52,901 nt of DNA from Candidatus Fimivivens sp. (GTDB taxonomy: Bacteria; Patescibacteriota; Minisyncoccia; Moranbacterales; UBA1568), in the NCBI GenBank assembly GCA_035560715.1, contig DATMYW010000030.1, forward strand, positions 1 through 52,901, written 5' to 3'. The first letter of the stretch is position 1. The number at the start of each line of letters is the position of its first letter. Below are positions 27,969-52,544 of this stretch, in pieces. The notes under the pieces are model-generated. The model saw only the letters and a list, made by a program, of their open reading frames with translations, did no database searches and was not told where the DNA came from. Position numbers and translations under genes: made by a program.

Positions 27969-27988
27969 TTCCCGCGGAAGCCCCGCGG
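27969..27988 (-). promoter_or_regulatory. leader hairpin, exact 20-nt repeat copy 2
   Basis: Identical TTCCCGCGGAAGCCCCGCGG, 15 nt before the ATG. Confidence 0.6.
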
Positions 27989-28017
27989 CAGGCATCGGTT
28001 CTTTGTGTTCCCATCCA

Positions 28018-33137: not shown

Positions 33138-34163
33138 TTACTTCCACCCCTGATTGACGATACGGAACGAGACCTGCTCCTGCTGGACGTTCACGATCCC
33201 CTGCGGGGTCTGCTGCGGGACGACCTGCTGGGTCTTCTTGAACTCCATACGGATCTCGAACCGGTTCGATTTTTCCGCGCTTTCAATTGCTGCGATCACA
33301 TAGTCTTTCTTGTTCTCAGCGCGGAACTCGCCACACTCGGCCTCGGGACTCCACTGCCCGTGGAGAACCATCTCGTCGCGATACGACTCGTAGAGCGAGG
33401 TGAGGAGCGTCGCGAGTTCTCCCTCGGCATACGAGACTGTCTTTATGCCAAGGTCTTCCTTGGCCTCGCGCCGACCGATGACATACTGGTGAGAGTAGAG
33501 TTTCTCGGTCAGGGTATCGATGATGCCGTCGATCGCCTTCTCGTCGAGCTTGGTCTGATGGCTGCCGAGGAGTCGCTTGGCGAGCAGTCGGATAAGCTTA
33601 TACGTGCGGTTCACATTGCCGAGTGCGAGTGGATGCACCGACGGCGTGCTATCGGCAAGCTTGTTGAAGATCTTGGTCAGTTCCTCGTCGCCCTTGATGC
33701 CGACACCTTCTTTCGCAAGGTCGAAGTACGCCATCACCTCCTCGACCGAAATCGGGATCCTGGCCTGCGGGTTCTGCGGATCGGCCGGATTGAAGACGTT
33801 CGCCGTCGAAGGGTCGATCGGGGTCAGCTCGCCCATGTCCGTCATCACGATCTCATCGGCGCCGAGCGCGATCATCGTCGCGGCGCTGTGCGCCTTGTAC
33901 GGCACGAGGACCGAAAAGGTATCGCAGTATTCGCGGATCATGGAGACGAGTCGCCATGGCACCATCGTGTCCCCACCCGCGCTGAACAGGACGAGATCGA
34001 TCTTCGGCACCTTGCCGATCGTGCGGAGCTGCTCACTCATCAGAGGAATCACGTCCATCGCGATCTTGGCACTCACCGGGCCCTGCCGGTCACTCGTCAC
34101 ATACGTAATCACCTTCGACCCTCGGGCCGATTCGATTTTTTTGAAAAGTTCGCTGCGTTCCAT
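33138..34163 (-). CDS. SDH-family Clp-fold serine protease
   Basis: VITYVTSDRQG, LVLFSAGGD, VPYKAHSAATMIALGADEIVM. Start moved to ATG 34163 because the ORF extension to 34319 runs through repeat A1. Confidence 0.75.
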   Translation of the reverse strand: MERSELFKKIESARGSKVITYVTSDRQGPVSAKIAMDVIPLMSEQLRTIGKVPKIDLVLFSAGGDTMVPWRLVSMIREYCDTFSVLVPYKAHSAATMIALGADEIVMTDMGELTPIDPSTANVFNPADPQNPQARIPISVEEVMAYFDLAKEGVGIKGDEELTKIFNKLADSTPSVHPLALGNVNRTYKLIRLLAKRLLGSHQTKLDEKAIDGIIDTLTEKLYSHQYVIGRREAKEDLGIKTVSYAEGELATLLTSLYESYRDEMVLHGQWSPEAECGEFRAENKKDYVIAAIESAEKSNRFEIRMEFKKTQQVVPQQTPQGIVNVQQEQVSFRIVNQGWK

Positions 34164-34194
34164 ATTTTTGGTTCGAATGTATTTCAACACCGTC

Positions 34195-34223
34195 ATCATA
34201 CACCCGAAAAACCCTTTTGTAAA
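34195..34223 (-). promoter_or_regulatory. promoter of the protease operon
   Basis: Minus strand TTTACA, 17 nt, TATGAT. Confidence 0.55.
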
Positions 34224-34268
34224 GCCTTCAAGCATCGCTACATGTCGATTACCTCCCCCACGAAACAC

Positions 34269-34431
34269 TTTGCAGGAGCAGGGTAGTCCCTGCTCCGAAA
34301 CGGTTTTCTCCCTTGCCAAGCCGCAGCCTTGGCGAAGGCTGGTTTGCCAAACCGGATATGTAACATCGATCGTAAACCATGTGGTTCAGGGTGCCCTCCA
34401 CGGGCGGGCAGGCAATCCTGAACCTGCGAGA
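34269..34431 (+). repeat. MITE-like hairpin element, copy A1 (163 nt)
   Basis: 5' hairpin GGAGCAGGG-TAGT-CCCTGCTCC, central GCCAAGCC...GGCTGG hairpin, 3' hairpin GGTTCAGG-N26-CCTGAACC, ends CTGCGAG. Confidence 0.85.
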
Positions 34432-34474
34432 AAACTACGAGAAGTATCCCTCATCCAAGCCTTTCCCCTGACGA

Positions 34475-34503
34475 TTGACTTATTTTCAAAAAAATGTTAT
34501 TTT
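34475..34503 (+). promoter_or_regulatory. cassette 1 promoter
   Basis: Box CTCATCCAAGCCTTTCC at 34450, then TTGACT, 17 nt, TATTTT. Confidence 0.5.
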
Positions 34504-34567
34504 TTCCAGTCGGTCAGCAGATCATTTCCAACAAACAAACGAGGCAAAACGCCGAAGGATCACCAAC

Positions 34568-35182
34568 ATGAACATCTATGAAATACTCGGATTAAAACTC
34601 CCTGTTCGGAATCGTTTCTCGTATATAAAGATGAGCGGGCCAATGAAGGTACTCGCCAGATACGAGACATCCAACGCATACGGCTTCGTAGTCCAAGAAG
34701 GCGTCCAAAGAAACATCATCGACATCCGGATTCCGAAAGATCTCGTGAAAGAACCAGTGGGAACGATCGACATGATCACGGTTACCTGGGAAAAGGATCA
34801 CGCCTTCATAGCGCCGCTTCAAAATTCCGACGCAAGGGAAGCTGATTATGGCAAACCGTTCTACCTTGATGGACCCCTTCAGGGTATGGCCGTACGATGC
34901 TTCACGATGCGAAACGATCACAGCGCCCCGCATGTGGCAGTTCCGATAGGCCAGCCACTTCCTCTCCTGTCCGCTTTCGAAGACGCCGGAGATCGACTCG
35001 TACTGATCAAAATGGATGACAACGGGCACGCGATCAAGAAAATGTCTCCGCTGACGGAATACAGCACAACCCCATGGGAAGAAATTCTCCTGAATCCATC
35101 GGGGTTTCGACTCCAGGTAGACGAAAGGTACGATACCGAAAACAAGGCCTTCCGTTTTTCCGAAAAACTTTCCAAAGAATGA
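34568..35182 (+). CDS. hypothetical protein (cassette 1)
   Basis: In-frame ATG 34568 (MNIYEILG...) with GAAGGA 9 nt upstream. The ORF-track start 34475 is the TTG of the -35 box. Confidence 0.65.
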   Translation: MNIYEILGLKLPVRNRFSYIKMSGPMKVLARYETSNAYGFVVQEGVQRNIIDIRIPKDLVKEPVGTIDMITVTWEKDHAFIAPLQNSDAREADYGKPFYLDGPLQGMAVRCFTMRNDHSAPHVAVPIGQPLPLLSAFEDAGDRLVLIKMDDNGHAIKKMSPLTEYSTTPWEEILLNPSGFRLQVDERYDTENKAFRFSEKLSKE

Positions 35183-35206
35183 ATCTTCCTCGGACACACG
35201 GTTCAG

Positions 35207-35252
35207 GGACGTTCTCTCGCATGTTAAGGCGAGGAACGTCCTTTATTATTTT
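35207..35252 (+). terminator. cassette 1 terminator
   Basis: GGACGTTCTCTCGC-N8-GCGAGGAACGTCC followed by TTTATTATTTT. Confidence 0.65.
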
Positions 35253-35444
35253 CAGCGAGCAAAAAACCACATGCGCGATATTTCATTGCATGAGATTTCT
35301 CGTGTAATGTGATCCATCCGTCATCGTCCGCATGAATATGCCGCGCACATAATCGTTTGTGCGATTCATTGCGTCATTTCCAAAGAGCGGATACTCGCGA
35401 CAAAACGCGCAAACTCTCACCTCATCCAAGCCCTTTCCGAACCG

Positions 35445-35473
35445 TTGACAGGAAATTAGTTCTTTGCTATAAT
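35445..35473 (+). promoter_or_regulatory. cassette 2 promoter
   Basis: Box CTCATCCAAGCCCTTTCCGA at 35421, then TTGACA, 17 nt (GGAAATTAGTTCTTTGC), TATAAT. Confidence 0.7.
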
Positions 35474-35506
35474 ATGTCGTTATCAGTGAGTTGTTTTACA
35501 ATGGTT

Positions 35507-35552
35507 GGTCATAGCCAAAAAAAGTTCATCCGGACTCTTTCTGGCTATGACC
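35507..35552 (+). promoter_or_regulatory. long perfect hairpin in the cassette 2 leader
   Basis: GGTCATAGCCA-N24-TGGCTATGACC, no following T-run, inside the 150-nt leader. Confidence 0.5.
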
Positions 35553-35623
35553 AAGAAAAAAGGTCTTAGTTCCGCCTCGGATGAGAGGAAACACAACCGC
35601 GCGACTGAGCGCAGGAGGCAATT

Positions 35624-36334
35624 ATGTCAGACAATATAAGAGATCCGTTCTATATCTCGAGAGTCTATCCAGGCGAATTAAACGCCCTGGTAAAGCACAT
35701 GATGCAACAGATGGGAACCAATGATCCGAATGAGGCGGTGAAGGGCATCAATAGCGGTGCGTATGCCGTTACAAAGGCACTCCCGTATTCCAAAGCCGAT
35801 GGTGTGCTCGCCATCGAACTCAGGTCGGATGGAACGACTGGGCCCGAGTGGATTCGTAAATGGAGAATGCGCGGCTACAAAGTCCCTGACAGGATACAAG
35901 AGCGTCTGTTGTCGCCTTCGTTCGAACCGACAAATGGCGTTACGTATCGCGTCGTGATTGTCTCCGAATCTGCGATTCTCATAAATCTGGGTACATGGAA
36001 CTCGACCTCGTCGGAGATCGGTTTCTCGGAAATTCTTGAGGAGGCCGGCAGGCGGAATCTCTCGATGATTGAGAACGAGGAAATCCCCTTCCTTCTCATG
36101 GAACGATTCACGAAAGGCCAGTACGAAAAAATGGGGTTTAAAGACATTGTCGTTCCTACACTGATCCCGGGTCCAATACCGACGATAAATGACCAGGAAG
36201 CTCAGTCATACGCGACATATCTGGAAACCTTCTACTACTTCGGTCGATTTTCACGGATCGAGGCGCTCGAATCAGCGATCTTCCAAAGAAATAGTGCTCG
36301 CGGCTATGCGCTCATCGAACGCAGCGAGTCATGA
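35624..36334 (+). CDS. hypothetical protein (cassette 2)
   Basis: 236-aa ORF. AGGAGG lies 6 nt before the ATG. Confidence 0.7.
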   Translation: MSDNIRDPFYISRVYPGELNALVKHMMQQMGTNDPNEAVKGINSGAYAVTKALPYSKADGVLAIELRSDGTTGPEWIRKWRMRGYKVPDRIQERLLSPSFEPTNGVTYRVVIVSESAILINLGTWNSTSSEIGFSEILEEAGRRNLSMIENEEIPFLLMERFTKGQYEKMGFKDIVVPTLIPGPIPTINDQEAQSYATYLETFYYFGRFSRIEALESAIFQRNSARGYALIERSES

Positions 36335-36355
36335 TCAGGATACGATGAGACACAG

Positions 36356-36383
36356 AAAAAGGGATCTCCAACGAGGTCCCTTT
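36356..36383 (+). terminator. cassette 2 terminator
   Basis: AAAAA-GGGATC-N8-GGTCCC-TTT, then stub CTCATTTCTCATCCAAC. Confidence 0.55.
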
Positions 36384-36400
36384 CTCATTTCTCATCCAAC

Positions 36401-36545
36401 TTTTGCAGGAGCAGGGTAGTCCCTGCTCCACACAGTTGTTCTCCCTTGCCAAGCCGTAGCCGTGGCGAAGGCTGGCGTGCCAAGCCGAATTCATAATATC
36501 GATCGTAAACCGCATGGTTCAGGGTGCAACCCTGAACCTGCGAGA
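36401..36545 (+). repeat. MITE-like hairpin element, copy A2 (145 nt)
   Basis: Same three-hairpin layout. 3' hairpin GGTTCAGGGT-GCA-ACCCTGAACC. Confidence 0.85.
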
Positions 36546-36560
36546 GGATACTCCCGCTCG

Positions 36561-36589
36561 TTGACACCCCCCTCCGGACCTGGTACGCT
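36561..36589 (+). promoter_or_regulatory. cassette 3 promoter (P2 type)
   Basis: TTGACA, 17 nt, TACGCT. A TACAAT at 36605 is an alternative -10. Confidence 0.45.
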
Positions 36590-36654
36590 GCCGAGAAGTG
36601 CTTTTTACAATCCGCATCAATCACCCGAAACCCTCTTAACGCGAAGGAGGCACC

Positions 36655-37095
36655 ATGCCACAAAACCTCATGAAAATTCAGATGTACGTTCCTGAAGGGT
36701 TCTCGACGATCAAGTCCGCACTCGATCGGTCGTTCGAGAAAGCCGGGTATCGGCTCGAAATGTGTACCGCCGAGGCGAAACCGCCATCGACCGATCCAAT
36801 AACGCTCGCGGTTCGGATGATCCCCGACGATTTCGGAGCGATTGCCGCCGGCCTCGCAATCATCGTTTCAGAAGAACCGGGCGGGCGGACGAAACTGGAC
36901 TGTGGGCTCGCGATACGAAAATACGACGATAATACGCATCGGGTGAATGCCCAGTTCGGTAATTTCTCTGTTGCCACCACATCGGACGAAATCGCTGGCC
37001 ATCGCATCTATGGCGGGGCATACGTCACGAAACTTGAGAAGGATCTGGACGCACTCATCCAGCAAATCCTGCCGCGGCGCCCCGTTCGCGCGTAA
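36655..37095 (+). CDS. hypothetical protein (cassette 3)
   Basis: 146-aa ORF. AAGGAGG lies 5 nt before the ATG. Confidence 0.7.
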   Translation: MPQNLMKIQMYVPEGFSTIKSALDRSFEKAGYRLEMCTAEAKPPSTDPITLAVRMIPDDFGAIAAGLAIIVSEEPGGRTKLDCGLAIRKYDDNTHRVNAQFGNFSVATTSDEIAGHRIYGGAYVTKLEKDLDALIQQILPRRPVRA

Positions 37096-37119
37096 CGACT
37101 GAAAAAAATACCCGATTAC

Positions 37120-37152
37120 CCGGCATGCGGCCCAACGCATGTCGGTTTTTTT
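37120..37152 (+). terminator. cassette 3 terminator
   Basis: CCGGCATGCG-N6-CGCATGTCGG followed by TTTTTTT. Confidence 0.8.
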
Positions 37153-37173
37153 GCCAAAAATCGATTCCCTTCG

Positions 37174-37202
37174 TTGACGCCCCCTTCCGGACCTGGTACG
37201 CT
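37174..37202 (+). promoter_or_regulatory. cassette 4 promoter (P2 type)
   Basis: TTGACG, 17 nt, TACGCT. Near-duplicate of 36561..36589 and its leader. Confidence 0.45.
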
Positions 37203-37268
37203 GCCAAGAAGTACTTTTTACAATCCGCATCAATCACCCGAAACCTTTTCAAAACAAAGGAGCGTAAC

Positions 37269-38156
37269 ATGACCACGACCAAACCGACACCGATCCTCAT
37301 TTCCGGCCTGCCGGGAAAAATGGCTACCCTGGTAGCGCAGGCGCTCATCCGCGACAACCGCTACCTGGTCGTTCCACACGCACTCGTCGGTCTGGAAACC
37401 ACCGACCCCGAAATCTTTCTCGAGCTCCACGACAAGCTGGGGCCGATGACGCGAATACCGTTCGAAACCGTGTATGCGCCTGGCAGACCAAATTACCTCC
37501 AGGAGCTGAAGTCGCGATACCCGGGACTCATCATCGTGGACTATTCCGTCCCGTCGGCCGTGAATACGAACGCCGAGCTGTTCTGTGACGCCGGTATCCC
37601 CTTCGTCATGGGCACGACCGGCGGCGACCGCAAGGCTCTCCAACGCACCGTCGAGCGATCGGGGGTTCCGGCCGTCATCTCCCCGAACATGTCGCCGGCG
37701 ATCGTCCTCTTGCTCTCGATGTTCGAGTATGCCGCCATGACCTTCCCCGATGCGCTCAAGGACTTCTCGCTCGAGATCATCGAGAGCCACCAGGCTGGAA
37801 AGAAGGACAAGAGCGGAACCGCAAAAAAGATTGGGGAACTCTTCGGACAGCTCGGAGTCGACTATCGCGGCGAGGATTCGATCAACGCGATCAGAAACCG
37901 CATGGCACAGCTCGCCATGTGCATCCCGCCCGAATATCTCGACGGCCACGGCTGGCACACCTACCGTCTGATATCGCCGGATGGCAGCGTTATGCTCGAA
38001 TTCAGGCACAACGTCAACGGACGGCAGACCTATGTCGACGGGACGGTCCTCGCCCTCGTATTTCTCATGGAAAAGGTCCGGGAAGCCTGCCTCGGAGTGT
38101 TCACGAACGAACCGACTGATACCTACTTCACGATGATCGACGTCCTGAAAGGATGA
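37269..38156 (+). CDS. dapB: 4-hydroxy-tetrahydrodipicolinate reductase homologue (plant/long type), cassette 4
   Basis: In-frame ATG 37269 with AAGGAG upstream. N-terminal Rossmann ILISGLPGKMA, MGTTGG, catalytic-loop-like ESHQAGKKDKSGTA. Confidence 0.7.
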   Translation: MTTTKPTPILISGLPGKMATLVAQALIRDNRYLVVPHALVGLETTDPEIFLELHDKLGPMTRIPFETVYAPGRPNYLQELKSRYPGLIIVDYSVPSAVNTNAELFCDAGIPFVMGTTGGDRKALQRTVERSGVPAVISPNMSPAIVLLLSMFEYAAMTFPDALKDFSLEIIESHQAGKKDKSGTAKKIGELFGQLGVDYRGEDSINAIRNRMAQLAMCIPPEYLDGHGWHTYRLISPDGSVMLEFRHNVNGRQTYVDGTVLALVFLMEKVREACLGVFTNEPTDTYFTMIDVLKG

Positions 38157-38183
38157 CAACGCGAACCGAAACGACAACGAACG

Positions 38184-38214
38184 AAAGGGATTCCACCGAA
38201 ACGGAATCCCTTTT
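38184..38214 (+). terminator. cassette 4 terminator
   Basis: AAAGGGATTCC-N8-GGAATCCCTTTT. Confidence 0.8.
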
Positions 38215-38230
38215 CTATTTTTCCTCCAAC

Positions 38231-38419
38231 TTTTGCAGGAGCAGGGTTGTACCCTGCTCCGAAACGGTCGGTCTCCCTTGCCAAGCCGGAGCCTCGGCGA
38301 AGGCTGGCTTGCCAAGCCGCAGTCATGGCAAAGGCTGGCTTGCCAAGCCGAATATATGAAGTCGCTCGTAAACCGCGTGGTTCAGGGTGTAACCCTGAAC
38401 CTGCGAGAAACCTGCGAGA
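38231..38419 (+). repeat. MITE-like hairpin element, copy A3 (189 nt)
   Basis: Same layout. Internal 31-nt unit CTTGCCAAGCC..GGCTGG duplicated in tandem (38277..38307, 38308..38338). 11-nt AACCTGCGAGA duplicated at the 3' end. Confidence 0.85.
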
Positions 38420-38450
38420 ATTATCCCAAATCCAAGCCATTTCCGGACAG

Positions 38451-38479
38451 TTGACTGGAAAGCGATTCTTTGCTATAAT
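38451..38479 (+). promoter_or_regulatory. cassette 5 promoter (P1 type)
   Basis: TTGACT, 17 nt (GGAAAGCGATTCTTTGC), TATAAT. Confidence 0.75.
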
Positions 38480-38542
38480 ACACCGTTATAGTAGTCTTTA
38501 CACCACAAACCACCAACCAGGGCCCGGAAAACGGGGAAATCG

Positions 38543-38878
38543 ATGAAACAGATTGAAAGCCTCAAGGAATTCAAAGGGGGGAATTATTATTGTGTCATTA
38601 CTTTCGGTTGGACAGGCAGCGCCGAAGATCAGCAAACTTTCTTCGTCAGAACGGTAAAACAAACAGGGGGTCTCAGCATAACATACGATTCCGGAAAGAA
38701 GGCGGAACTTTCCCCGACGAACCTGAAAGAAGGTCTCGAATCCGGCGCCTATTACTCCTCCAGCAAGAGCGCCTTTCTTAAAGAGGTGAGATCCTTCCTC
38801 TCCAACATGAAAAGGACTCGAAAAAAGCGATCTCGAACAATACATGACTTCGAACAGTTTATTGCGACTCTTCCGTAA
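38543..38878 (+). CDS. hypothetical protein (cassette 5)
   Basis: 111-aa ORF behind the conserved leader. No signal peptide. Confidence 0.6.
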   Translation: MKQIESLKEFKGGNYYCVITFGWTGSAEDQQTFFVRTVKQTGGLSITYDSGKKAELSPTNLKEGLESGAYYSSSKSAFLKEVRSFLSNMKRTRKKRSRTIHDFEQFIATLP

Positions 38879-38916
38879 CAAGAGGAGGCTTAAAAAAGAC
38901 GGCCTTGATCGTATGC

Positions 38917-38946
38917 AAAGGAGCTCCATCCAACCGGAGCTCCTTT
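38917..38946. terminator. cassette 5 terminator
   Basis: AAAGGAGCTCC-N8-GGAGCTCCTTT. Confidence 0.8.
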
Positions 38947-38947
38947 C

Positions 38948-39007
38948 TCATTTCTCCTTCAACCCGAGCTTGTCGATTCTCGATCGGATACTGCCCGGCT
39001 GGCGCCC
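38948..39007 (-). pseudogene. fossil copy H3 of the helicase 3' end
   Basis: Minus-strand read GRQPGSIRSRIDKLGLKEK-stop versus helicase GRQPGSIRSRIEKLGLGEK-stop. Six synonymous and two non-synonymous codon differences. Confidence 0.8.
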
Positions 39008-39039
39008 GATCATCCCTCATCCAAGCCCTTTCCGGACGG

Positions 39040-39068
39040 TTGACTGGAAAGCGATTCTTTGCTATAAT
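39040..39068 (+). promoter_or_regulatory. cassette 6 promoter (P1 type)
   Basis: Box CTCATCCAAGCCCTTTCCGGA at 39016, then TTGACT, 17 nt (GGAAAGCGATTCTTTGC), TATAAT. Confidence 0.75.
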
Positions 39069-39130
39069 GCACCGTTATAGTAGTTTTTACACCACAAACC
39101 ACCAACCAGGGCCCGGCAACGGGTTTACTC

Positions 39131-39724
39131 ATGAATACACGATCCACGTTTCGCGGTTTTCTTATCGGATTCTTTCTTGTTTTTTTGGCCGCGTGCAGCC
39201 AGAAATCAAGCGAAAATCCAAGGGACATCGAGGAGCGGCTTAGGCAGGCTCCGCCGAAAACCTTCCTGATCGACGAAAAAGGGAATGTGACCAAAGTCGG
39301 CCACGTTGCCGCAGAAACGGACGAAATCACGTCCGTTAACACCGATGGGGCATTCGGCACTATGCCAATCCGGACGGCTACGGGAAGGATCGTCGAGATC
39401 GTCGTGCCCGATCACCAGAACTACGCCGCCTACGAGCGCATGTTCCCTGGCTTGCAATCACAGGACATCCTGAGAAAGGCAGGGCAAGGGGCGATCGCTC
39501 TCATGGCTGACGGTTCCGTCATGGTCATCGTCAATCCGACGTATGAGTATGGCATCGCGATGGTCTCGAAATCAATCGGAACGAGACAGACGCTCTCAAC
39601 CGATGACATCGTAGCTAAAGCGGTCAACATCGTCTCTCCGAAAACTCCAGGAAAGGCGCTCAACGGCTATGATGAGCTGTGTGCGACCTACGTCAGCGGT
39701 ACAAGATTGCGACCTCAGAAGTAA
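39131..39724 (+). CDS. lipoprotein L1 (cassette 6)
   Basis: Signal peptide MNTRSTFRGFLIGFFLVFLAAC with lipobox L-A-A-C (Cys22). Confidence 0.8.
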   Translation: MNTRSTFRGFLIGFFLVFLAACSQKSSENPRDIEERLRQAPPKTFLIDEKGNVTKVGHVAAETDEITSVNTDGAFGTMPIRTATGRIVEIVVPDHQNYAAYERMFPGLQSQDILRKAGQGAIALMADGSVMVIVNPTYEYGIAMVSKSIGTRQTLSTDDIVAKAVNIVSPKTPGKALNGYDELCATYVSGTRLRPQK

Positions 39725-39743
39725 CGAGGCCTCAACCAAAGAA

Positions 39744-39769
39744 AAAGGAGCTTCCAACGGAGCTCCTTT
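39744..39769. terminator. cassette 6 terminator
   Basis: AAAGGAGCT-N8-AGCTCCTTT. Confidence 0.75.
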
Positions 39770-39770
39770 C

Positions 39771-39827
39771 TCATTTCTCCCCCAACCCGAGCTTTTCAAT
39801 TCTCGAACGGATACTGCCCGGTTGGCG
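39771..39827 (-). pseudogene. fossil copy H2 of the helicase 3' end
   Basis: Minus-strand read RQPGSIRSRIEKLGLGEK-stop is identical to the helicase C-terminus, although 8 nucleotides differ. All eight changes are synonymous. Confidence 0.85.
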
Positions 39828-39874
39828 GACGAAAGACGGACGGACCTGATCCGACTGAACCCTTTCCGAAAGTC

Positions 39875-39903
39875 TTGACATACGGCACGAAATATACTAT
39901 CGT
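39875..39903 (+). promoter_or_regulatory. cassette 7 promoter
   Basis: TTGACA, 17 nt, TATCGT, preceded by the partial box CCCTTTCCGAA. Confidence 0.5.
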
Positions 39904-39961
39904 ATCGTGAAGCATCTTACCATCATTTTTCCCTAACCTCTGACCGAAACCGGAGACTCTC

Positions 39962-41056
39962 ATGAAACAAGCGGGACCAACCCAACCAGAAAGCGCCATC
40001 ACCGAACTCCAAAAACTGTTTGACGAAGCGTTTATCGCGTTTGAGAACCAGCCCATTACACCGGGAATAGCCAACCTCGGAGGTGCGGAAATCCCGACAC
40101 ATGTCGGAGGTATCGAAATACGGACGATTCAGCCGGGTGAAGACGGATACACGCTGGGAAATACGTATCTGACCCAGATCTGTAACCAGTTCCGGGAATG
40201 GAGTGCTGACGTACGTGAGGAATACCGGAGGCGGGGCGTGGCGCACGTCGCGATACTCCCGCTCTATATCATGCACGAATTCTTCCGGGCCACCGGAAAG
40301 ATCTCCCTACGTCCGACTGAGCGCGATATGATCATGCTCTCGAGACACTGGAAAAAACCGCTTCAGGAATCAGTGTATGATGCCATTGACACGACAGCGC
40401 ATATCATGGGCCTGGCATGTTCCATCGGATTGGCAGCGGGAGCCGGTTACTTGCTGTTCTGGCCCGGAGGACTGAAGGGAAACGTCGACTATTTCAACGC
40501 CCTTTTCCTGAACACGACCAAGGTGATCCTGACGATTGCCGTTGCCATCGGAATGATGTGGGCAACGAATCTGTTCCTCGGTTACATCGGAAAGAAGGCC
40601 GCGGTCAAACGATTCGTAGAACGGGTTTTCCGCTGGAGATTGGGACGTTTCATCCGAACGGAAAGTCGCTACGAAGTGTTTCGCACCGTTCTGGACAACA
40701 GTCGCTACTGCGACGAATCGGACGCCTATTACGAAACCATCGCGTTTCGTGATTATCCGGACGGATTGGAACGGACCCTGTTCGCCGCCGGACGGTCATA
40801 TGTCGCCGCGCATCCGGATGCCATCGGTATCGCAGGGACGTCATATGAACTGTCCATGATTGGATGGAAACAGCGTCGGCCGGAATTCGCGGAACCGACG
40901 GTATCGGGTCCATGCGTTCTCTTCTACCACGAGCGGGAACACGCGACTGACAAACGGCATTGCCCATATGGAATCGTACTCGGCACGATCGGTGAACTCT
41001 CAAAAGAAGATGCCGATATCTTCCGCGGGCTCTTGAACAATGAGCGTCTTGTCTGA
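39962..41056 (+). CDS. hypothetical two-TM membrane protein (cassette 7)
   Basis: 364-aa ORF. GGAG lies 6 nt before the ATG. Central hydrophobic helices IMGLACSIGLAAGAGYLLFW and VILTIAVAIGMMWATNLFLGYI. Confidence 0.7.
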   Translation: MKQAGPTQPESAITELQKLFDEAFIAFENQPITPGIANLGGAEIPTHVGGIEIRTIQPGEDGYTLGNTYLTQICNQFREWSADVREEYRRRGVAHVAILPLYIMHEFFRATGKISLRPTERDMIMLSRHWKKPLQESVYDAIDTTAHIMGLACSIGLAAGAGYLLFWPGGLKGNVDYFNALFLNTTKVILTIAVAIGMMWATNLFLGYIGKKAAVKRFVERVFRWRLGRFIRTESRYEVFRTVLDNSRYCDESDAYYETIAFRDYPDGLERTLFAAGRSYVAAHPDAIGIAGTSYELSMIGWKQRRPEFAEPTVSGPCVLFYHEREHATDKRHCPYGIVLGTIGELSKEDADIFRGLLNNERLV

Positions 41057-41069
41057 ACGAGACCGAACA

Positions 41070-41105
41070 AAAACCCGACGCGTGCAGCCGCGCCCGTCGG
41101 GTTTT
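41070..41105 (+). terminator. cassette 7 terminator
   Basis: AAAACCCGACG-N14-CGTCGGGTTTT. Confidence 0.85.
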
Positions 41106-41135
41106 ATTCTCCTCATCCAAGCCATTTCCGGACGG

Positions 41136-41164
41136 TTGACTGGAAAGCGTTTCTTTGCTATAAG
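41136..41164 (+). promoter_or_regulatory. cassette 8 promoter (P1 type)
   Basis: Box CTCATCCAAGCCATTTCCGGA at 41112, then TTGACT, 17 nt (GGAAAGCGTTTCTTTGC), TATAAG. Confidence 0.7.
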
Positions 41165-41224
41165 ACATCTTTATCAGTGCCTTACCATTTCAACTCAAAC
41201 AAGGTCCCGGCAACGGGTTTACTC

Positions 41225-41806
41225 ATGAATACACGATCCACGTTTCGCGGTTTTCTTATCGGCATCGCGCTCATTTTCCTCGCCGCATGCGGCCAGAAAA
41301 CCGAAACGAATCCGCCGGAGGTCGCGAGGCAAAAGGCCGAGGAGATCCGAAGCGCGACTCCGACGACCTTCGTAAGAAGTTTCGCGGATCACATCGTAAG
41401 GATCACGAACATCGACAAGGACACGTTCACCGCGATCGAGCCCGACGGCACGTTCCGAACTTACGCGATTTCGGCGGCAGCAAAAACGGTCGACGAGATC
41501 ATAAAGCCGGACGACCCGAACTACGCCGACTACGTGCATATGTTCCAAAACGAATCCGTCATCGCGGCGATACACAACGCGGGTCAGTACGCCTTCATCG
41601 TTGCCAAGGATGGGACGATCGGTCAAATAGTCAATAACCCCGCCCCCGCCGCACTCACCGCCAACGTCCGCTGGCATCAGGGAGCAATGATTGTAAAAAT
41701 GGAGATTTCCTCGATCGCCACACGACTTATCGACGTCGTTCCGACAAGTGACATTAGGTACAACACCTTTGCCGGAAAGTACTGCCGCGAAGAAAAGGCG
41801 AAGTGA
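41225..41806 (+). CDS. lipoprotein L2 (cassette 8)
   Basis: In-frame ATG 41225. MNTRSTFRGFLIGIALIFLAAC lipobox (Cys22). The first 38 nt of the CDS are identical to L1. Confidence 0.8.
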   Translation: MNTRSTFRGFLIGIALIFLAACGQKTETNPPEVARQKAEEIRSATPTTFVRSFADHIVRITNIDKDTFTAIEPDGTFRTYAISAAAKTVDEIIKPDDPNYADYVHMFQNESVIAAIHNAGQYAFIVAKDGTIGQIVNNPAPAALTANVRWHQGAMIVKMEISSIATRLIDVVPTSDIRYNTFAGKYCREEKAK

Positions 41807-41824
41807 TTGTCGGCGCGCAACAAA

Positions 41825-41850
41825 AAAGGAGCTTCCAACGGAGCTCCTTT
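41825..41850. terminator. cassette 8 terminator
   Basis: AAAGGAGCT-N8-AGCTCCTTT. Confidence 0.75.
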
Positions 41851-41911
41851 CTCATTTCTCCCCCAACCCGAGCTTCTCGATCCGCGAACGGATGCTGCCA
41901 GGCTGACGGCC
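41839..41911. repeat. 73-bp perfect direct repeat, left copy (contains pseudo 3' end H1, 41852..41911)
   Basis: Identical base for base to 42730..42802 (offset 891). Covers half the terminator plus the stop and last 19 codons of the helicase. Confidence 0.9.
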
Positions 41912-41990
41912 AAAGGGAAATATCGTCCCTCCTCCAAGCCATTTTCAAACCATTTCACAAGGAAATGATAATGTCCCCATTTTCGAACCA

Positions 41991-42019
41991 TTGACGAGGT
42001 AGCTATTTCCTGCTATAAT
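41991..42019 (+). promoter_or_regulatory. cassette 9 promoter
   Basis: TTGACG, 17 nt, TATAAT. Confidence 0.7.
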
Positions 42020-42078
42020 AGACCGTCGCAGTAGTCTTACCAATAACTCTCAACCAGGGCCTGGAAACGGGTTTTATC

Positions 42079-42693
42079 ATGCACACATATTCCACGCTTC
42101 GCCACATCCTCGTCGGATTCTTTCTCGTTTTCCTCGCCGCATGCACGGAGATGACCAATCCGCAGGATGTCGCAACGGAATTCCAGAATAAACTAAAGGA
42201 GGCCCCGATCGGATCCTATGTGATCACCAATTACGGAACATGCCTAAGAATAGAGTCGCGATCTTCCGACCGTGATAGCCTGTATGTCTTTACCGGACGC
42301 GGCTCGATGAGTAAACTCGGGATCACTGCTCTTTCCTACGAGTCCAAAAAACTACTCCTCCCAGGGGAAGAAGGGTATGCGGCTCAGGACAGGAGTTTCC
42401 GCGATATTACTCAAGAATCCCGGATATTAAATGCGCCAAAAGGCACCCTCCTTCTCCGGAAGAATATCTCCAACGGAAGAACGGAAGTCGGTATGATAAT
42501 GGCATCCACCGGCTGCCCCGGTGTCGTGAATGTCTGTTGGAAAAATGGCTCGCAGGCAGAATCTGAACAAGTATTCACGCTTACCAAAACGATCACCTCT
42601 ATCATCACTCCCTCCGAACAGGACTATAAAACGTACATGCTCTTGTTCAATAATGGGAAAGTCTTCCATCCGGAAGGATTCAGAAAAGGCTGA
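42079..42693 (+). CDS. lipoprotein L3 (cassette 9)
   Basis: MHTYSTLRHILVGFFLVFLAAC lipobox (Cys22), behind the conserved leader. Confidence 0.8.
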   Translation: MHTYSTLRHILVGFFLVFLAACTEMTNPQDVATEFQNKLKEAPIGSYVITNYGTCLRIESRSSDRDSLYVFTGRGSMSKLGITALSYESKKLLLPGEEGYAAQDRSFRDITQESRILNAPKGTLLLRKNISNGRTEVGMIMASTGCPGVVNVCWKNGSQAESEQVFTLTKTITSIITPSEQDYKTYMLLFNNGKVFHPEGFRKG

Positions 42694-42713
42694 AATCGAC
42701 GAGGTATGAAAAT

Positions 42714-42741
42714 AGGAGCTCCATCCAATCGGAGCTCCTTT
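42714..42741. terminator. bidirectional terminator shared by L3 and the helicase
   Basis: AGGAGCTCC-N8-GGAGCTCCT followed by TT. Confidence 0.75.
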
Positions 42742-42802
42742 CTCATTTCTCCCCCAACCCGAGCTTCTCGATCCGCGAACGGATGCTGCCAGGCTGACGG
42801 CC
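42730..42802. repeat. 73-bp perfect direct repeat, right copy (functional helicase 3' end)
   Basis: See 41839..41911. Confidence 0.9.
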
Positions 42803-44383
42803 GAGGGTGTGCGAGATCGATTTGATATCGGCCCCTCCCTGGACAAGCCTTCGGAGCCACTTGTCCTCGTCTTCCTTCCACGGCGTATACGCCTTCGGGA
42901 ATGTCTTCCGTATCTCGTCATAATGACCGGGGCCGGCGGTTTTGGGAGTCGGACTCCCGCTTGGGAGTCGGACTCCCTTTTTCACTTCTTTTCTCCCCTT
43001 CGTCTTCTGCTTACCCATTTTTCCCTTTCCCCCTTGCCACGTAGGAGCCTTGGCGGAGGAGGGCTGCACCCCGCAGATGATCAAAAACCCTTCCTCATCT
43101 TTCCGGATCTCGTCTTCGCTCCGTGAGCCGTACGATGTCGCGGCCGACTCGCTCGCCTCGCGAAAGAGGAGGTCGCGCTCGCGCACCGCCGGGTGCGTGA
43201 GGAACGCGCGGTCGGAGAGTCCGACGAGCGAAAGCCCCGCGAGGGTGCGCACGCGGGAGAGCGCCACATATCCCTGCCCGTATTCGAACACGCGAGACAG
43301 GTCCATGACCGCCGCATCGAGCGAGGTTCCCTGACTCTTGTGGATCGTCATCGCCCACGCGAGCCGCAACGGGATCTGCCGGATCCGCGCCACGATCTCC
43401 TCCCCTTCCTCGACCGCCCATTCGGCAGGAGCGACCGTCACCGTGTCACCGTCGCGGGTGCGGACAATCGGGAATTTCTTGGTCGCATCGAACCCGATGA
43501 CCGTGCCGAGCGTCCCGTTCACGTATCCTTCCTCGGCATTGTTCTTGGTGAACATGACCGAGGCGCCCTCCTTGAGTTCGAGCTTCTCGGGCGAAAGGCA
43601 CCCGCGGATGAGCGAGGCGAGCGGTCCCTCGGGTCCCCGCGTCGCCATACGGAAGACGACTGCCTTCCCGGGAAGCCGGTCGAGCGCGGCCGCATTGATC
43701 CCGTCCACGTCGGTATTGTGCGAGAAAAGCACCGGCAGGTCCTCGTCCGGCACATCATCGGGTCCCAGGAGGCACTTGCGAACGAGTTCGAGGTGCGTCT
43801 CGCCGAATTCGTCACGGCGGATCGCGGAGAGTATCTCGAGGAATGCCGGGTCTTCCTGACGGTGCTGCTCATGCAGATAGCAGACGACCGGATCGAGCGC
43901 GGCCCACGCGGACGACTCGAACGCGAACTGGGCCGCCCCATCGCGCGACACCGGCGGCAGCTGGAAGAAGTCGCCGACGAGCACGACCTGGATCCCGCCA
44001 AAGGGAAGCGTCGTTCCCTTGGCGTGCCGGCACACCCGCTCCACAAGCGAAAGTGTCCGCGCATCGAGCATCGAGATCTCGTCGATTACGAGGACGTTCG
44101 TCTCGCGAATCCGACGCAGGGCCGCACGGTTCTTCACGAGACGGCGGAATCCCTCGTCGTCGAGCTCGCGGTTCGCACCGATCCCGCTCCACGAGTGGAT
44201 GGTCATCCCGTGGATATGCGTGGCCGCGATTCCGGTCGAGGCCGTCACCGCGTACGCGATACCCCGGGAACGAAGGTATTCCGCATATCGGTTCACGACA
44301 TGCGTCTTGCCGGCACCCGCCTCCCCCGTGAGGAAAACGTTCGCGCCGGTCTTGAGTATGGATAGCGCCTGGTCCTGGGTCAT
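42743..44383 (-). CDS. PIF1/RecD-like ATP-dependent DNA helicase with a C-terminal Myb/HTH-like tail
   Basis: Walker A GEAGAGKTH, VLVIDEISM, VLVGDFFQLPPV, TIHKSQG. Tail YTPWKEDEDKWL...LGRQPGSIRSRIEKLGL. Confidence 0.88.
   Translation of the reverse strand: MTQDQALSILKTGANVFLTGEAGAGKTHVVNRYAEYLRSRGIAYAVTASTGIAATHIHGMTIHSWSGIGANRELDDEGFRRLVKNRAALRRIRETNVLVIDEISMLDARTLSLVERVCRHAKGTTLPFGGIQVVLVGDFFQLPPVSRDGAAQFAFESSAWAALDPVVCYLHEQHRQEDPAFLEILSAIRRDEFGETHLELVRKCLLGPDDVPDEDLPVLFSHNTDVDGINAAALDRLPGKAVVFRMATRGPEGPLASLIRGCLSPEKLELKEGASVMFTKNNAEEGYVNGTLGTVIGFDATKKFPIVRTRDGDTVTVAPAEWAVEEGEEIVARIRQIPLRLAWAMTIHKSQGTSLDAAVMDLSRVFEYGQGYVALSRVRTLAGLSLVGLSDRAFLTHPAVRERDLLFREASESAATSYGSRSEDEIRKDEEGFLIICGVQPSSAKAPTWQGGKGKMGKQKTKGRKEVKKGVRLPSGSPTPKTAGPGHYDEIRKTFPKAYTPWKEDEDKWLRRLVQGGADIKSISHTLGRQPGSIRSRIEKLGLGEK
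42942..42977. repeat. tandem 17-mers, each holding a 15-nt palindrome, inside the helicase CDS
   Basis: TTGGGAGTCGGACTCCC at 42942..42958 and 42961..42977. Core GGGAGTCGGACT also forms the half-site of the 32-nt intergenic palindromes. Confidence 0.85.
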
Positions 44384-44471: not shown

Positions 44472-45053
44472 TCACATCCGCCTAAGCACATCGCGCACGC
44501 GATAGGCGGCATACCGCTCAGAAACGAGGTACGCTCCGATCGTGCACGCCAACACGATCAACGTGATAACATGCCCGCCGGGAATCAGCGCAAGAAAAAG
44601 CACGACAAACCCGACCGATACCGACGTCCATTCCGCCCATGAACACTCGAAGTACCCGAAGGCGGACGTGATGGCCGCCCAGGACGGTTTGTCTCGTCTC
44701 GCCCGTGTCACCGACTGCACGGACAGGACCGACAGGACGGCGATAAAGAATACCCAGACCAAAAGCACCGCGCCTTCCTCCAGCCGGCCGACGGACTTGG
44801 CAATAAACCCTATATGTGCCAGGAGCCGATACCCGACGTCCGGCTTCGAAACGAGCGCCGAGAGACCAAATGAGACGGCGAGAAAAAGACCGTACGACAG
44901 CATCTTTTCAGTTCCCGTCTCCCTCTCATATGGGTCCTCTTCCGACCCGAGTCGTCCTTCCACGAATCGTTCCGCGCTATCGGACAGACCGAATCTGATT
45001 TTTATATCGGAAATCAGATCCCGTTCATATCGCATAAGATGCCGTATCATCAT
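44472..45053 (-). CDS. hypothetical multi-TM membrane protein
   Basis: 193-aa ORF. AAGGAGGG lies 1-2 nt (unusually close) before the ATG. Confidence 0.65.
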   Translation of the reverse strand: MMIRHLMRYERDLISDIKIRFGLSDSAERFVEGRLGSEEDPYERETGTEKMLSYGLFLAVSFGLSALVSKPDVGYRLLAHIGFIAKSVGRLEEGAVLLVWVFFIAVLSVLSVQSVTRARRDKPSWAAITSAFGYFECSWAEWTSVSVGFVVLFLALIPGGHVITLIVLACTIGAYLVSERYAAYRVRDVLRRM

Positions 45054-45484: not shown

Positions 45485-48400
45485 CTACTCGGCGATTTCT
45501 TCCGCGACATCGGCAACCGGGGCCGCGACGGGCTCGCGGAATCCGGTACCGGCCGGGATGAGACGCCCGATGATGACGTTCTCCTTGAGGCCGCGGAGGC
45601 GGTCCTCCTTGCCGGCGACCGACGCGTTGATAAGCACCCGCGCCGTTTCCATGAAGGATGCGGCCGAGAGAAAGGACTCCGTCGAGAGCGCCACCTTGGT
45701 GATACCGAGGACGAGCTGTTCGCCCTGGGCGGTCGCCTTGCCGGCCGCCGCGACCTCCTGGTTCGACTCGCCGAACTGCGCGGTCTCGACGATGTCGCCC
45801 GGCAGGAGCTCGGTCGCACCCGGATCCGTGATGCGGATGCGGGAAAGCATCTGGCGGATGATCACCTCGATGTGCTTGTCGTTGATACCTTCGCCCTGGC
45901 TCGCGTAGATCTCTTCGATCTCGCGGATGATGTAGCGATGCAGCGCCTCCTTGCCCGAGATCTCGTAGAGTTTCTTGAGATCGAGGTGCCCCTCGGAGAG
46001 GACCGTCCCCTCACCCACGAGGTCGCCTTCCTTCACGAGTACCGAGAGGTTCGCCGGGACGGAGAACTCGCGATCTTCCTTGTCCACGGTGGTGATGACG
46101 ATCTTGACCGTCTTCTCGCCGTCCTTCGAAACTGACAACACGGTGCCGGCGACATCGGAGATGACGCCCTCGGACTTCGGTGTGCGGGCCTCGAAGATCT
46201 CCTCAACGCGCGGAAGACCCTGCGTGATGTCGGACCCGGCGATACCGCCGATGTGGAACGTACGCATGGTGAGCTGGGTACCCGGCTCGCCGATCGCCTG
46301 TGCGGCGACGACTCCGACTGAGGCGCCGATCTCGACCATCGCGTTGCGACCGAGGTCGACCCCGTAGCACTTGCGGCAGATGCCGCGGTTGGATTTGCAG
46401 GACACGAGCGAACGGATCCTTACTTTCTGGATGCCGACCTTCTCGATCTCGGCCGCCTTCGGTTTCGAGATGAGTTCGTTCTTCTTCACGATGACCTCGC
46501 CCGTATCGGGATGCTTGATCGTCTCGAGCGCGACGCGACCGCGGACCCGTCCCGCGAAGCTCATGCCGATCGATTCGGAATCCTCACGGTAGAGGAACGC
46601 GCCATCAGTATCCTTGCAGTCCTCCTCACGGACGATGATATCCTGCGACACGTCGACCAGTCGACGGGTGAGGTAACCGGCGGTCGCGGTGCGGAGCGCG
46701 GTATCCGCCATACCCTTTCGCGCGCCGTGCGTGGAGATGAAGTACTCGAGAACATTGAACCCTTCCTTGAACGAGCTCTTGACCGGGAGCTCGATGGTCT
46801 CGCCGGTCGCTCCGGCCATAAGTCCCTTCATTCCGGTCATCTGGACGACGACGGATTCGGAACCGCGGGCTTTGGAGTAGACCATGGAGTAGACCGGGCC
46901 CTCCTTGTCGAGAGACGAGCGGACCGCATCGGTAATCTTGTTCTTCGCCTCGTTCCAGATCTCGATGACGCGATTCTTGCGCTCCTCGTTGGTGAGAAAG
47001 CCCATCTCGTACTGTCCCTTCACCTCGACGACCTTGGTCTCGGCATCAGCCATAATCGTCTCCTTCTCGACCGGGACCTTGAGATCGTCCATACCCCAGC
47101 TGATGCCGGAGCGGGAGACGTAACGGAACCCGAGGTCCTTGAGCTTGTCGGCGAACTTCGCAGTCTCTTCCTGACCGACTTCCTCGAGCATGCGAGCCAT
47201 GACGCCGTTGAGACTCTTCTTCACGAACTCTTCGTTCATGAAGCGGAGGTGATCCGGCAAGATGTCGTTGAAGAGCACTCGGCCGGCGGACGTCTCGATG
47301 AGCTCGCCTTTCCAAAGAAGCTTGATCTTCGCATTCACGTCGATCAATCCGCTCTGATACGCGAAGATGACCTCGTCCATGTTCGAGAACGCTTTCCCCT
47401 CGCCCTTCACGCCACTCTTGAGGTGCGTCAGATAGTACGCGCCGAGCACCATGTCGAGCGTCGCGGACACGATCGGATCGCCGGACGCCGGCTTCAGAAG
47501 GTTCTTCGCGGAAAGCATCATGTTCGCGCTCTCCCAACGGGCCTGATCGGTAAGCGGTACGTGAACCGCCATCTGGTCGCCGTCGAAGTCCGCGTTGAAC
47601 GCGGAACACACCATCGGATGGAGGCGGATGGCCTTGCCCTCGATCAGGACCGGCTGAAACGCCTGGATGGAGAGACGGTGCAGGGTCGGGGCGCGGTTCA
47701 GGAGCACGTAGTGGTGCTCGATGATCTGGTCGAGGATCTCATATGCCTCTTCCGCCTCGGCGTCGACCATGCGGCCGGCGGTGCGGACATTGTGCGCGTC
47801 CTCACGTTCGATGAGCTTCTGGATGATGAACGGCTTGAAAAGTTCGAGTGCCATCTTTTTCGGAAGACCGCACTGGTGCAGCTTGAGCTTCGGACCGACG
47901 ACGATCACGGAGCGTCCCGAATAATCGACGCGCTTTCCAAGCAGGTTCTGACGGAACCGACCCTGCTTCCCTTTGAGCGCGTCGGCGAGCGAACGGAGCG
48001 GTCGGCGCTGCCCGGTAGAGGCGGCGGCGCTGGCCTGACCGCGGCGGGCACCGTTGTCGAAGAGCGCGTCCACCGCTTCCTGCAGCATGCGCTTCTCATT
48101 TCTCGTGATGACTTCCGGCGCGCCGATAGACAAGAGCTTCTTCAACCGGTTGTTGCGGTTGATGATACGACGATAGAGATCGTTGAGGTCGGACGTGGCG
48201 AACCGTCCGCCATCGAGGGCGACCATCGGACGCAGATCCGGCGGGATGACCGGGATGACGGTCGGGAGCATCCACTCGAGCCGCAATTGCGCCTTCTGGA
48301 AGCCCTGGAAGACCTTGAGCCGCTGGAGATGCTTCTTGGGATCGGACATCTCGCCCGCCTCAAGCTCGGCCCGGAGCGACGTGATCATCGCCGGGATATC

Positions 48401-49115: not shown

Positions 49116-52544
<3,429 letters not shown>

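Follow-up and report, generated by a model that had tools for sequence, protein, structure and literature searches.

The locus considered here lies on a contig of an uncultured Candidatus Moranbacteria bacterium (Patescibacteria, within the candidate phyla radiation, CPR), of which we analyzed a stretch of 52,901 nucleotides, called the window throughout. The conserved gene downstream of rpoB-rpoC encodes a PIF1-family helicase, and a variable island of 16.7 kb separates this gene from ftsK. Our subject is the helicase's last 18 codons and stop codon, a repeated "tail" of 57 bases whose motif occurs exactly four times in the window, where 0 to 0.03 occurrences are expected by chance. All four copies are in direct orientation; one (H0) is the working end of the gene, and three (H1, H2, H3) are detached from any helicase body. 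The argument turns on H2. Related loci and contigs used for comparison carry L numbers.

42743 to 44383, minus strand: PIF1-family helicase gene, 546 amino acids (Pfam PF05970, PIF1, E = 4.9e-33)
42743 to 42799, minus strand: H0, the working helicase 3' end, encoding RQPGSIRSRIEKLGLGEK and a stop
41852 to 41908, minus strand: H1, a fossil helicase end with a type-2 terminator loop
39771 to 39827, minus strand: H2, a fossil helicase end with eight silent differences from H0, of the L081/L003 allele type
38948 to 39004, minus strand: H3, an older fossil end, encoding RQPGSIRSRIDKLGLKEK and a stop, with its own terminator at 38917-38946

Repeating the codon alignment, we found that H2 and H0 alike encode the 18-residue peptide RQPGSIRSRIEKLGLGEK followed by a stop, as the first-pass annotation of this stretch had claimed for H2 and the helicase C-terminus at 42743. 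On the minus strand, H2 (from 39827 to 39771) is CGC CAA CCG GGC AGT ATC CGT TCG AGA ATT GAA AAG CTC GGG TTG GGG GAG AAA TGA, and H0 (from 42799 to 42743) is CGT CAG CCT GGC AGC ATC CGT TCG CGG ATC GAG AAG CTC GGG TTG GGG GAG AAA TGA. They differ at eight bases (tail positions 3, 6, 9, 15, 25, 27, 30, and 33), which fall in the H0/H2 codon pairs CGT/CGC, CAG/CAA, CCT/CCG, AGC/AGT, CGG/AGA (two changes), ATC/ATT, and GAG/GAA; these are the eight synonymous substitutions that the annotation had listed. Seven are at third codon positions, and the remaining one is the first base of CGG/AGA. When eight random substitutions (six transitions, two transversions) were placed in the 57 bases, the peptide remained intact in 4 to 8 of 300,000 simulations, and the simple probability of eight silent changes out of eight, from 13 synonymous and 41 non-synonymous sites, is (13/54)^8 = 1.1e-5. 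What had been roughly estimated as very unlikely by chance thus amounts to about 1 to 3 in 100,000. The silent-to-replacement count is 8:0, where neutral divergence would be expected to give about 2:6. All of the differences are confined to bases 1-33 (Fisher p = 0.0017), and an identical block of 37 bases (39758-39794 = 42730-42766) then follows, taking in the stop codon and reaching into the terminator stem. H2 and its upstream junction are both present in an independent Logan contig, L090 (SRR7629281), which matches 39765-41235 at 100% identity.

The silent differences also carry the signature of another lineage. H2 matches the working helicase ends of L081, L003, and L086 at 55, 54, and 53 of 57 bases, respectively, and its own H0 at 49, and all eight H2 base states are found in functional helicase alleles. 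At these eight diagnostic sites, L081 and L003 are H2-like at seven, and L092, the window's nearest relative in the helicase C-terminal region, is H0-like at seven. Over the helicase bodies of the window and L081, 45% of the codons for the same amino acid differ; at the end of the gene, H0 differs from L081 at 7 of 18 codons, as expected, and H2 at 2 of 18 (P = 0.0024; about 0.02 allowing for nine comparisons). The diagnostic-site and codon comparisons therefore assign H0 to the resident helicase lineage and H2 to another, and the source lineage of H2 is, to judge from sequence, about as distant as a different species-level relative (~75% helicase identity). Because a neutral local copy would gain about three replacement changes for each silent one, divergence in place is excluded for H2. 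No related helicase end matches H2 exactly, the best, that of L081, being two bases off. In our judgment, H2 is very probably the fossil of a foreign working allele, left by insertion of a cassette. The earlier proposal that H2 is the displaced 3' end of another, selectively maintained allele is therefore supported by the match to L081, by the diagnostic sites, by the codon comparison, and by the 8:0 count. The same annotation saw in H2 the footprint of an incoming element or of recombining DNA; the imported-DNA part of this is supported, but no recombinase-bearing element was found, and the choice between the two is one that we infer.

The array in which H2 stands has a regular anatomy, with the order H0-cassette-H1-cassettes-H2-cassette-H3-cassette. 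Each helicase-end copy lies directly 5' of a hairpin predicted to be a terminator on both strands, and beyond each hairpin stands a convergent gene on the opposite strand: lipo204, lipo209 (with p364 behind it), lipo197, and a gene of 111 amino acids. The elements outward from the helicase are as follows.

42714 to 42739, both strands: two-way terminator hairpin common to the helicase and lipo204, with a type 1 loop
41991 to 42693, plus strand: lipo204 cassette, nearest the helicase, with promoter TTGACG-17-TATAAT at 41991-42019, leader, and gene at 42079-42693
41136 to 41850, plus strand: lipo209 cassette, with promoter at 41136-41164, gene from its ATG at 41225 to 41806, and terminator at 41825-41850
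39875 to 41094, plus strand: p364 cassette, with promoter TTGACA-17-TATCGT at 39875-39903, gene at 39962-41056, and its own terminator at 41077-41094
39744 to 39769, both strands: two-way terminator below H2, serving lipo197, with a type-2 loop
39012 to 39724, plus strand: lipo197 cassette, with end motif ATCCCTCATCCAAGCC, promoter TTGACT-17-TATAAT at 39040-39068, leader, and gene at 39131-39724
38423 to 38878, plus strand: cassette of the 111-amino-acid gene, with the same promoter type at 38451-38479 and gene at 38543-38878
38215 to 38232, minus strand: possible truncated fossil, AAG TTG GAG GAA AAA TAG (KLEEK and a stop), with terminator; a weak candidate beside the DapB-like cassette
36385 to 36402, minus strand: possible truncated fossil, AAG TTG GAT GAG AAA TGA (KLDEK and a stop), with terminator; a weak candidate beside p236

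The three detached copies are not alike. H1 is base-identical to H0, within a 73-base exact block, and the terminator below H2 falls inside a 53-base block (39742-39794) that is identical between H1 and H2. H3 has five H2-type silent base states (in CGC, CCG, AGT, and AGA) together with two amino-acid changes, E to D and G to K. In-frame stops lie upstream of the arginine codon by 15 codons in H1 and by 5 codons in H3. The sequence upstream of H2 had been described as unrelated to the helicase, and indeed no helicase similarity was detected there by alignment. A longer fossil, in which the promoter-end motif would be degenerate helicase coding sequence, was also considered and dropped, since comparison with six working alleles and shuffled sequences gave no consistent support; the local alignments yielded two nominal hits only, both for H1.

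The cassettes share their ends and differ in their contents: at the DNA level both ends are 60-100% identical, whereas in the cores identity falls to 20-50%, near the random level. Cassette promoters are near-consensus, TTGACT/A-17-TATAAT, with 10 to 12 of 12 matches to sigma-70 (that of lipo209 was read by eye), and the leader is conserved. The promoter modules at 38423-38535, 39012-39123, 41108-41215, 35417-35488, and 41925-42078 are strongly conserved, and each has ATCCCTCATCCAAGCC. They contain an inverted repeat, TTTCC-N12-GGAAA, around the -35 box, a possible operator, and in the module leader the start codon is immediately preceded by a small hairpin of GNRA type, CCCG-GCAA-CGGG, with no obvious Shine-Dalgarno sequence. 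A second repeated promoter and leader, at 36558-36649 and 37171-37262 (89% identical), consists of TTGACA-17-TACGCT with an AAGGAG ribosome site and drives the p146 and DapB-like cassettes.

The three predicted lipoproteins, lipo197, lipo204, and lipo209, have a common signal peptide with F-L-A-A-C at residues 18-22 in all three, and their overall identity is 23-32%. Their lipobox (FLAAC in lipo204) is read from the sequence and their lipoprotein status is predicted; family matches are weak and confined to the signal region. An ortholog of lipo204 at 54% identity is present in L088, and lipo197 has one database relative, P0122, also at 54%; exact-protein look-ups for lipo197 and lipo204 returned no match. 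The p364 gene encodes a predicted membrane-like protein of 364 amino acids, has no relative among 5.8 billion proteins and no family match, and belongs to a cassette without a helicase end of its own. Neither of the cassettes neighboring H2, those of lipo197 and p364, was found beside an H2-type allele. A degenerate tail pattern searched in metagenomes matched five loci only, with a single copy each, and yielded L081 and no new arrays.

Farther out are older cassettes, those of p235, p236, p146, and the DapB-like gene, in which the spacer is a different, hairpin-rich repeat. Two of these may keep the last five codons of the helicase end, as the possible truncated fossils listed above suggest; the stretch 36351-36400 is 78% identical to 39737-39786 (E = 1.5e-4). 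The hairpin-rich repeat ("type B", ~130-180 bases) occurs in the window at 34269-34394, 36402-36545, and 38232-38408, with a partial copy at 29492-29529, and is also found in L004 (13003-13159) and as three tandem copies in L082 (9577-10063). Between older cassettes, type-B repeats take the place that a helicase end holds in younger ones; they may be a small RNA, a REP-like element, or a recombination site. The copy at 38225-38410 folds at -86.9 kcal/mol (z = -5.2) and has no Rfam match; across the whole window the sole Rfam match is a tRNA-Pro at 94-165, and none reaches E <= 1 in 34000-43000. We also considered whether another gene's coding sequence might end in the type-B repeat (34269-38408), and rejected this: an indel between copies breaks the frame, and the repeat is therefore non-coding.

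The island is bounded by core genes on both sides.

49116 to 52544, minus strand: rpoB
45485 to 49087, minus strand: rpoC
44472 to 45053, minus strand: small membrane open reading frame (ORF)
23551 to 26007: ftsK, where core genes resume, with recA

The helicase itself retains its P-loop PIF1/AAA_30 core (PF05970, E = 4.9e-33) and its 2B domain (PF21530, E = 8.5e-7); its closest relatives are 72-79% identical and, where named, belong to Candidatus Moranbacteria/Moraniibacteriota. G+C content is lower in the island (0.43-0.58, with 0.50-0.55 as a tighter range) than in the helicase and rpoBC (0.61-0.65). Near the ftsK-side edge of the island, a 55-base direct repeat (27285-27339 and 27940-27994, 75% identical) contains CCCGCGGAAGCCCCGCGG.

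Fossil ends behind the same helicase recur in at least three other genomes: two in L088/L001, one in L086, and one in L087. One of them, L088b, has four silent and no replacement changes relative to its resident end over the first 15 codons, an independent repetition of the pattern in H2. The L086 fossil is frameshifted, and that of L087 has R-to-C and E-to-G changes and belongs to the "LGLGE-stop" allele class, which is working in L004 and L083. Helicase loci at 46-58% identity have no fossil ends, so these ends are specific to this clade. The interval between helicase and ftsK varies from 1.3 kb in L085 through 2.8 kb in L002, 4.4 kb in L004, and ~7.5 kb in L082 to the 16.7 kb of the window. 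Cassette order varies as well. The DapB-like cassette adjoins the working end in L081 and holds the second position in L086 and L088, and in the window it lies far more distally, fourth from the protease end; the lipo204 ortholog is the last cassette in L088, and lipo204 the first in the window. The L087 island runs on into type I restriction-modification, Bro-N, and TIR-domain genes, and one L088 cassette is a Bro-N gene.

Several further observations concern the same region in these relatives. Defense- and mobile-type genes occupy the hotspot in L087 (13416-17487), L088 (11679-12527), and L002 (11684-12853), among them genes for RadC, type I HsdS and HsdM, Bro-N, a ThsB-like TIR domain, and a nucleoside 2-deoxyribosyltransferase-like protein. 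A membrane-like protein of 164 amino acids (p164) is 99.4% identical between the window (32219-32713) and L088 (16055-16546), whereas its flanks (protease, methyltransferase, and LysE genes) show ~80-93% DNA identity to L088, and rpoBC 87%; the sequences thus suggest a very recent transfer of p164 between lineages. L087 also carries, at 8298-9068 and upstream of its intact helicase, the truncated 5' half of a second helicase (256 codons), which is 82% DNA-identical to the resident gene over the first 569 bases and mirrors the 3' fossils. Between rpoC and the helicase, L088 and L089 carry four consecutive genes of ~200 amino acids on the opposite strand (6896-9862 in L088), where the window has a single ORF of 193 amino acids; the helicase may have a second variable spot here, on its other side.

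How did H2 and the cassettes arrive? With modest confidence, we favor an account in which both were brought in by homologous recombination within the end/terminator repeat. H2 would have evolved under protein selection as a working helicase end in a different Moranbacteria lineage, of the L081/L003 type, and would then have arrived with imported DNA, with no divergence at its present site. Small self-contained cassettes have been stacked one by one between the helicase and ftsK, each unit consisting of a conserved promoter and leader, one gene (often for a hypervariable surface lipoprotein), a two-way terminator, and a helicase-end copy. DNA of a related lineage, in the form of either a looped-out, circular cassette or a fragment between two such repeats, would recombine within the ~95-base end/terminator repeat, in which exact blocks span 37-73 bases, with the host's homologous-recombination enzymes doing the work (recA is among the window's genes). 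One crossover within the identical 3' block would let the helicase keep its native first 33 bases, insert the cargo, and strand the incoming first 33 bases further out as a fossil. Later crossovers between copies could shuffle, duplicate, or delete cassettes.

The repeats have the structure that this account predicts. Exact shared blocks measure 37 bases between H0 and H2, 53 between H1 and H2, and 73 between H0 and H1, and the copies are mosaic, pairing H0 with H1 and H2 with H3 in the coding part but H1 with H2 and H0 with H3 in the terminator loop. Each of the four features predicted by a crossover in the 3' block is observed, namely the native first 33 bases of the helicase end, the entry of cargo, the fossil 33 bases, and the swapped loops. 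The mosaic copies with their exact blocks therefore favor recombination within the repeat, and this reading gains support because p164 and the L087 5' half trace other exchange between lineages. We regard the mechanism as the most likely one, and we infer its circular or repeat-flanked intermediates, its RecA dependence, and the direction and order of insertion.

Several observations weigh against recombination within the repeat as the whole explanation. The fossils start within ~15 bases of one another (-9 to +6 of the arginine codon, at CTCGGC/CGY CAG CC, the slash preceding the arginine codon), and this clustering holds beside at least three kinds of left neighbor and in four genomes (the window, L086, L087, and L088). 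Independent founding by illegitimate events should not cluster, which suggests a site-specific step. No donor was found with the same cassette beside an H2-type end, and neither a circular form nor an empty-site variant was observed. Finally, the H2-p364 segment lies between exact repeats, one of 53 and one of 57 bases; short-k assembly alone therefore cannot fix the order of lipo197 and lipo209 or prove integration. We thus favor homologous recombination for the spread of the cassettes, while their founding junctions remain outside that account, for which a site-specific mechanism is a serious rival.

In this rival mechanism, a trans-acting recombinase encoded elsewhere would have inserted the cassettes one at a time, or else a bigger parent element that has decayed since then. 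Its cleavage core would lie where the final 19 codons begin, at their 5' edge (CTCGGC/CGYCAGCC), the incoming DNA would carry a replacement helicase end, and H2 would once have been this helicase's working end, displaced by the next insertion. We keep it as a rival because the fossil starts cluster so tightly, and they do so beside a canonical promoter end, the p364 promoter, the 3' end of a Bro-N gene, and the DapB promoter, with no helicase similarity upstream of the start point. The other cassette end, GGCTTGGATGAGG, is sharp in 11 contexts across the window and four other genomes, and precedents exist in icd/icdC with e14 (PMC13626634) and in the accretion of cis-mobilizable elements (CIMEs) at the end of a target gene (PMC5704250). 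However, no recombinase, transposase, or integrase domain was found in the ORFs of the window island (Pfam, PHROGs, NCBIfam) or in those tested from the islands of L002, L086, L087, L088, and L092. Viral, phage, and plasmid matches are likewise absent: the degenerate tail pattern had 0 matches in viral contigs, blastn of 38900-42810 against phages and plasmids gave no match, and PHROGs returned nothing for the cassette proteins. No cognate autonomous element (integrative and conjugative element, ICE; integrative and mobilizable element, IME; or phage) was found in the six close-relative loci or the other related loci (90 loci, a set that does not include complete genomes). Moreover, H0 retains resident silent states, whereas a strict crossover at the 5' edge requires that the latest incoming ends were of native type, and the mosaic of coding and terminator types points to crossovers inside the repeat. 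On this evidence we consider a site-specific enzyme acting in trans possible, though unlikely. Targeting of the dif/Xer or Tn7-like kind was set aside on general grounds.

The order of the cassettes might instead be a product of assembly, with sequences of co-occurring strains, or a small unintegrated circle of H2, p364, and a lipoprotein gene, threaded into the contig via exact repeats, in which case H2 would not be a chromosomal fossil at its present position. The repeats that bracket the segment would allow this (53 bases, 39742-39794 = 41823-41875, and 57 bases, 39112-39168 = 41206-41262); the Logan contigs break exactly 30 bases into them, and the assembly graph also permits a 2.1-kb circle. 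Yet the junction between the p364 promoter and the helicase end is present in two assemblies, and an intact helicase gene cannot yield such a junction. Comparable fossils with junctions of their own occur in independent assemblies from other studies (L086, L087, L088, and L089). Every graph path leaves H2 detached from a helicase body and joined to non-helicase sequence, so its status as a detached end is independent of assembly order. We therefore judge an artefact or unintegrated form to be quite improbable.

Local tandem duplication of the helicase end with a lipoprotein gene, followed by ordinary divergence that left H2 as an old local pseudogene, would account for the paralog-like lipoprotein genes with their common promoter, leader, and signal peptide. 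Unequal crossing-over is expected between such repeats, and H1, being identical to H0, could be a recent local duplicate. But a neutral copy should accumulate replacement and silent changes at ~3:1, and H2 has eight silent and none of the other kind (P ~1e-5); it bears another lineage's silent states and stands closer to L081's end than the end of the window's own helicase does. The cassette cores, at 23-32% amino-acid identity, and the fossil ends, at 86-100%, cannot be of the same age. Decay of the sort that a neutral pseudogene undergoes is seen in other fossils, in the frameshift of L086 and partly in H3. Such a local origin for H2 is very hard to sustain.

It is just as improbable that H2 still functions in coding, as a small protein or as a spare end that is regularly fused back to the helicase when the cassettes between are deleted, both of which would hold it under selection on the protein: the first-pass annotation, in stating that nothing is in frame with H2, was nearly right, but a 36-codon ORF that begins with ATG (39881-39879) and ends at the H2 stop (39771) does contain it, and the direct exact blocks of 37-73 bases would allow helicase-H2 fusion deletions as in e14 excision with icd/icdC (PMC13626634), yet this ATG is nothing more than the p364 promoter's -35 box read in reverse complement, no ribosome-binding site was seen and the promoter scan gave no minus-strand promoter there, in-frame stops close H1 and H3 just upstream, and other fossils decay (the frameshift in L086, R to C and E to G in L087, E to D and G to K in H3).

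The footprint is known in kind, and what is new is its integrase-less CPR setting. In the icd/icdC system of Escherichia coli, e14 or phage 21 brings a replacement gene end and leaves the old end stranded beyond the insert; most differences between the copies are silent or conservative, and when the insert is deleted the gene becomes joined to the other copy (PMC13626634). The helicase locus is similar in having an intact gene and, beyond the inserted DNA, a direct partial copy of its 3' end with mainly silent differences. However, e14 is a prophage of 15 kb that encodes its own integrase and is excised upon SOS induction, whereas here we find single-gene units of 0.6-2 kb without a recombinase, three to five mosaic copies, and a CPR host. 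No integrase beside an att site was found between the helicase-end copies, and although the starts cluster at -9 to +6 around CTCGGC/CGY as a fixed crossover core would have it, the mosaic copies suggest crossovers inside the repeat.

Tandem accretion of CIMEs and IMEs at the 3' ends of target genes, in which decayed elements without integrases persist between repeats (PMC5704250), offers a second parallel. As in the ICESt1 family at fda and the IMEs at tRNA-Lys, the target gene's end is repeated serially. Unlike the helicase locus, those arrays trace to elements with integrases of known specificity that are present in the same species, and the units at the helicase are far smaller, with a promoter each and conserved ends. 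Integron arrays resemble the locus in their ordered small, mostly single-gene, unrelated cassettes beside a fixed gene, with a recurring boundary and reshuffling between genomes. They differ in that the helicase locus has no IntI, attI, or attC, its adjacent gene is a PIF1 helicase, its cassettes have strong promoters of their own and point at the fixed gene, and its boundary is the end of a coding gene plus a terminator. In the orphan modules of rhs, cdiA, and maf, displaced 3' modules likewise persist downstream with a short piece of the main gene, a possible recombination anchor; there the displaced piece is the variable toxin tip with its immunity gene, whereas here it is the invariant C-terminus of the helicase, and the variable cargo sits in a convergent gene of its own. 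In aquatic prokaryotes, additive flexible genomic islands (PMC4033161) also make close relatives differ by cassettes added at one fixed spot flanked by conserved genes, with homologous recombination implicated; the concept is general and does not predict serial gene-end fossils with the silent signature of another lineage. The locus works like accretion at a gene 3' end, and we would not assign it to any named family.

Our findings bear on how bacteria with very small genomes acquire genes. We suggest, tentatively, that Moranbacteria may carry an integrase-less, integron-like accretion locus. In such a locus, the ~95-base helicase end and terminator may serve as the docking sequence and GGCTTGGATGAGG as the other boundary, and the self-expressing cassettes may be chiefly other lineages' alleles of hypervariable surface lipoproteins together with defense-type genes, each dragging along its donor's helicase end. 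If this is true, such a "stack of alleles" would let an episymbiont with a tiny genome collect surface variants by general recombination or by an unrecognized trans-acting enzyme.

CPR bacteria have small genomes and few recognizable mobile elements, and their mechanisms of gene exchange are largely unknown. The silent-only signature of H2 makes a 57-base scrap of sequence into a dated and sourced marker of gene flow, one recording that DNA entered the chromosome and was kept from a lineage whose helicase is only ~75% identical in protein. Should docking need no dedicated integrase, cassette arrays would have a route of formation that is both simple and general; should there be a trans-acting recombinase, the sequence it targets is already confined to ~15 bases. 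The helicase locus is thus a concrete and recurrent place in which to study how CPR bacteria acquire and shuffle their surface and defense genes.

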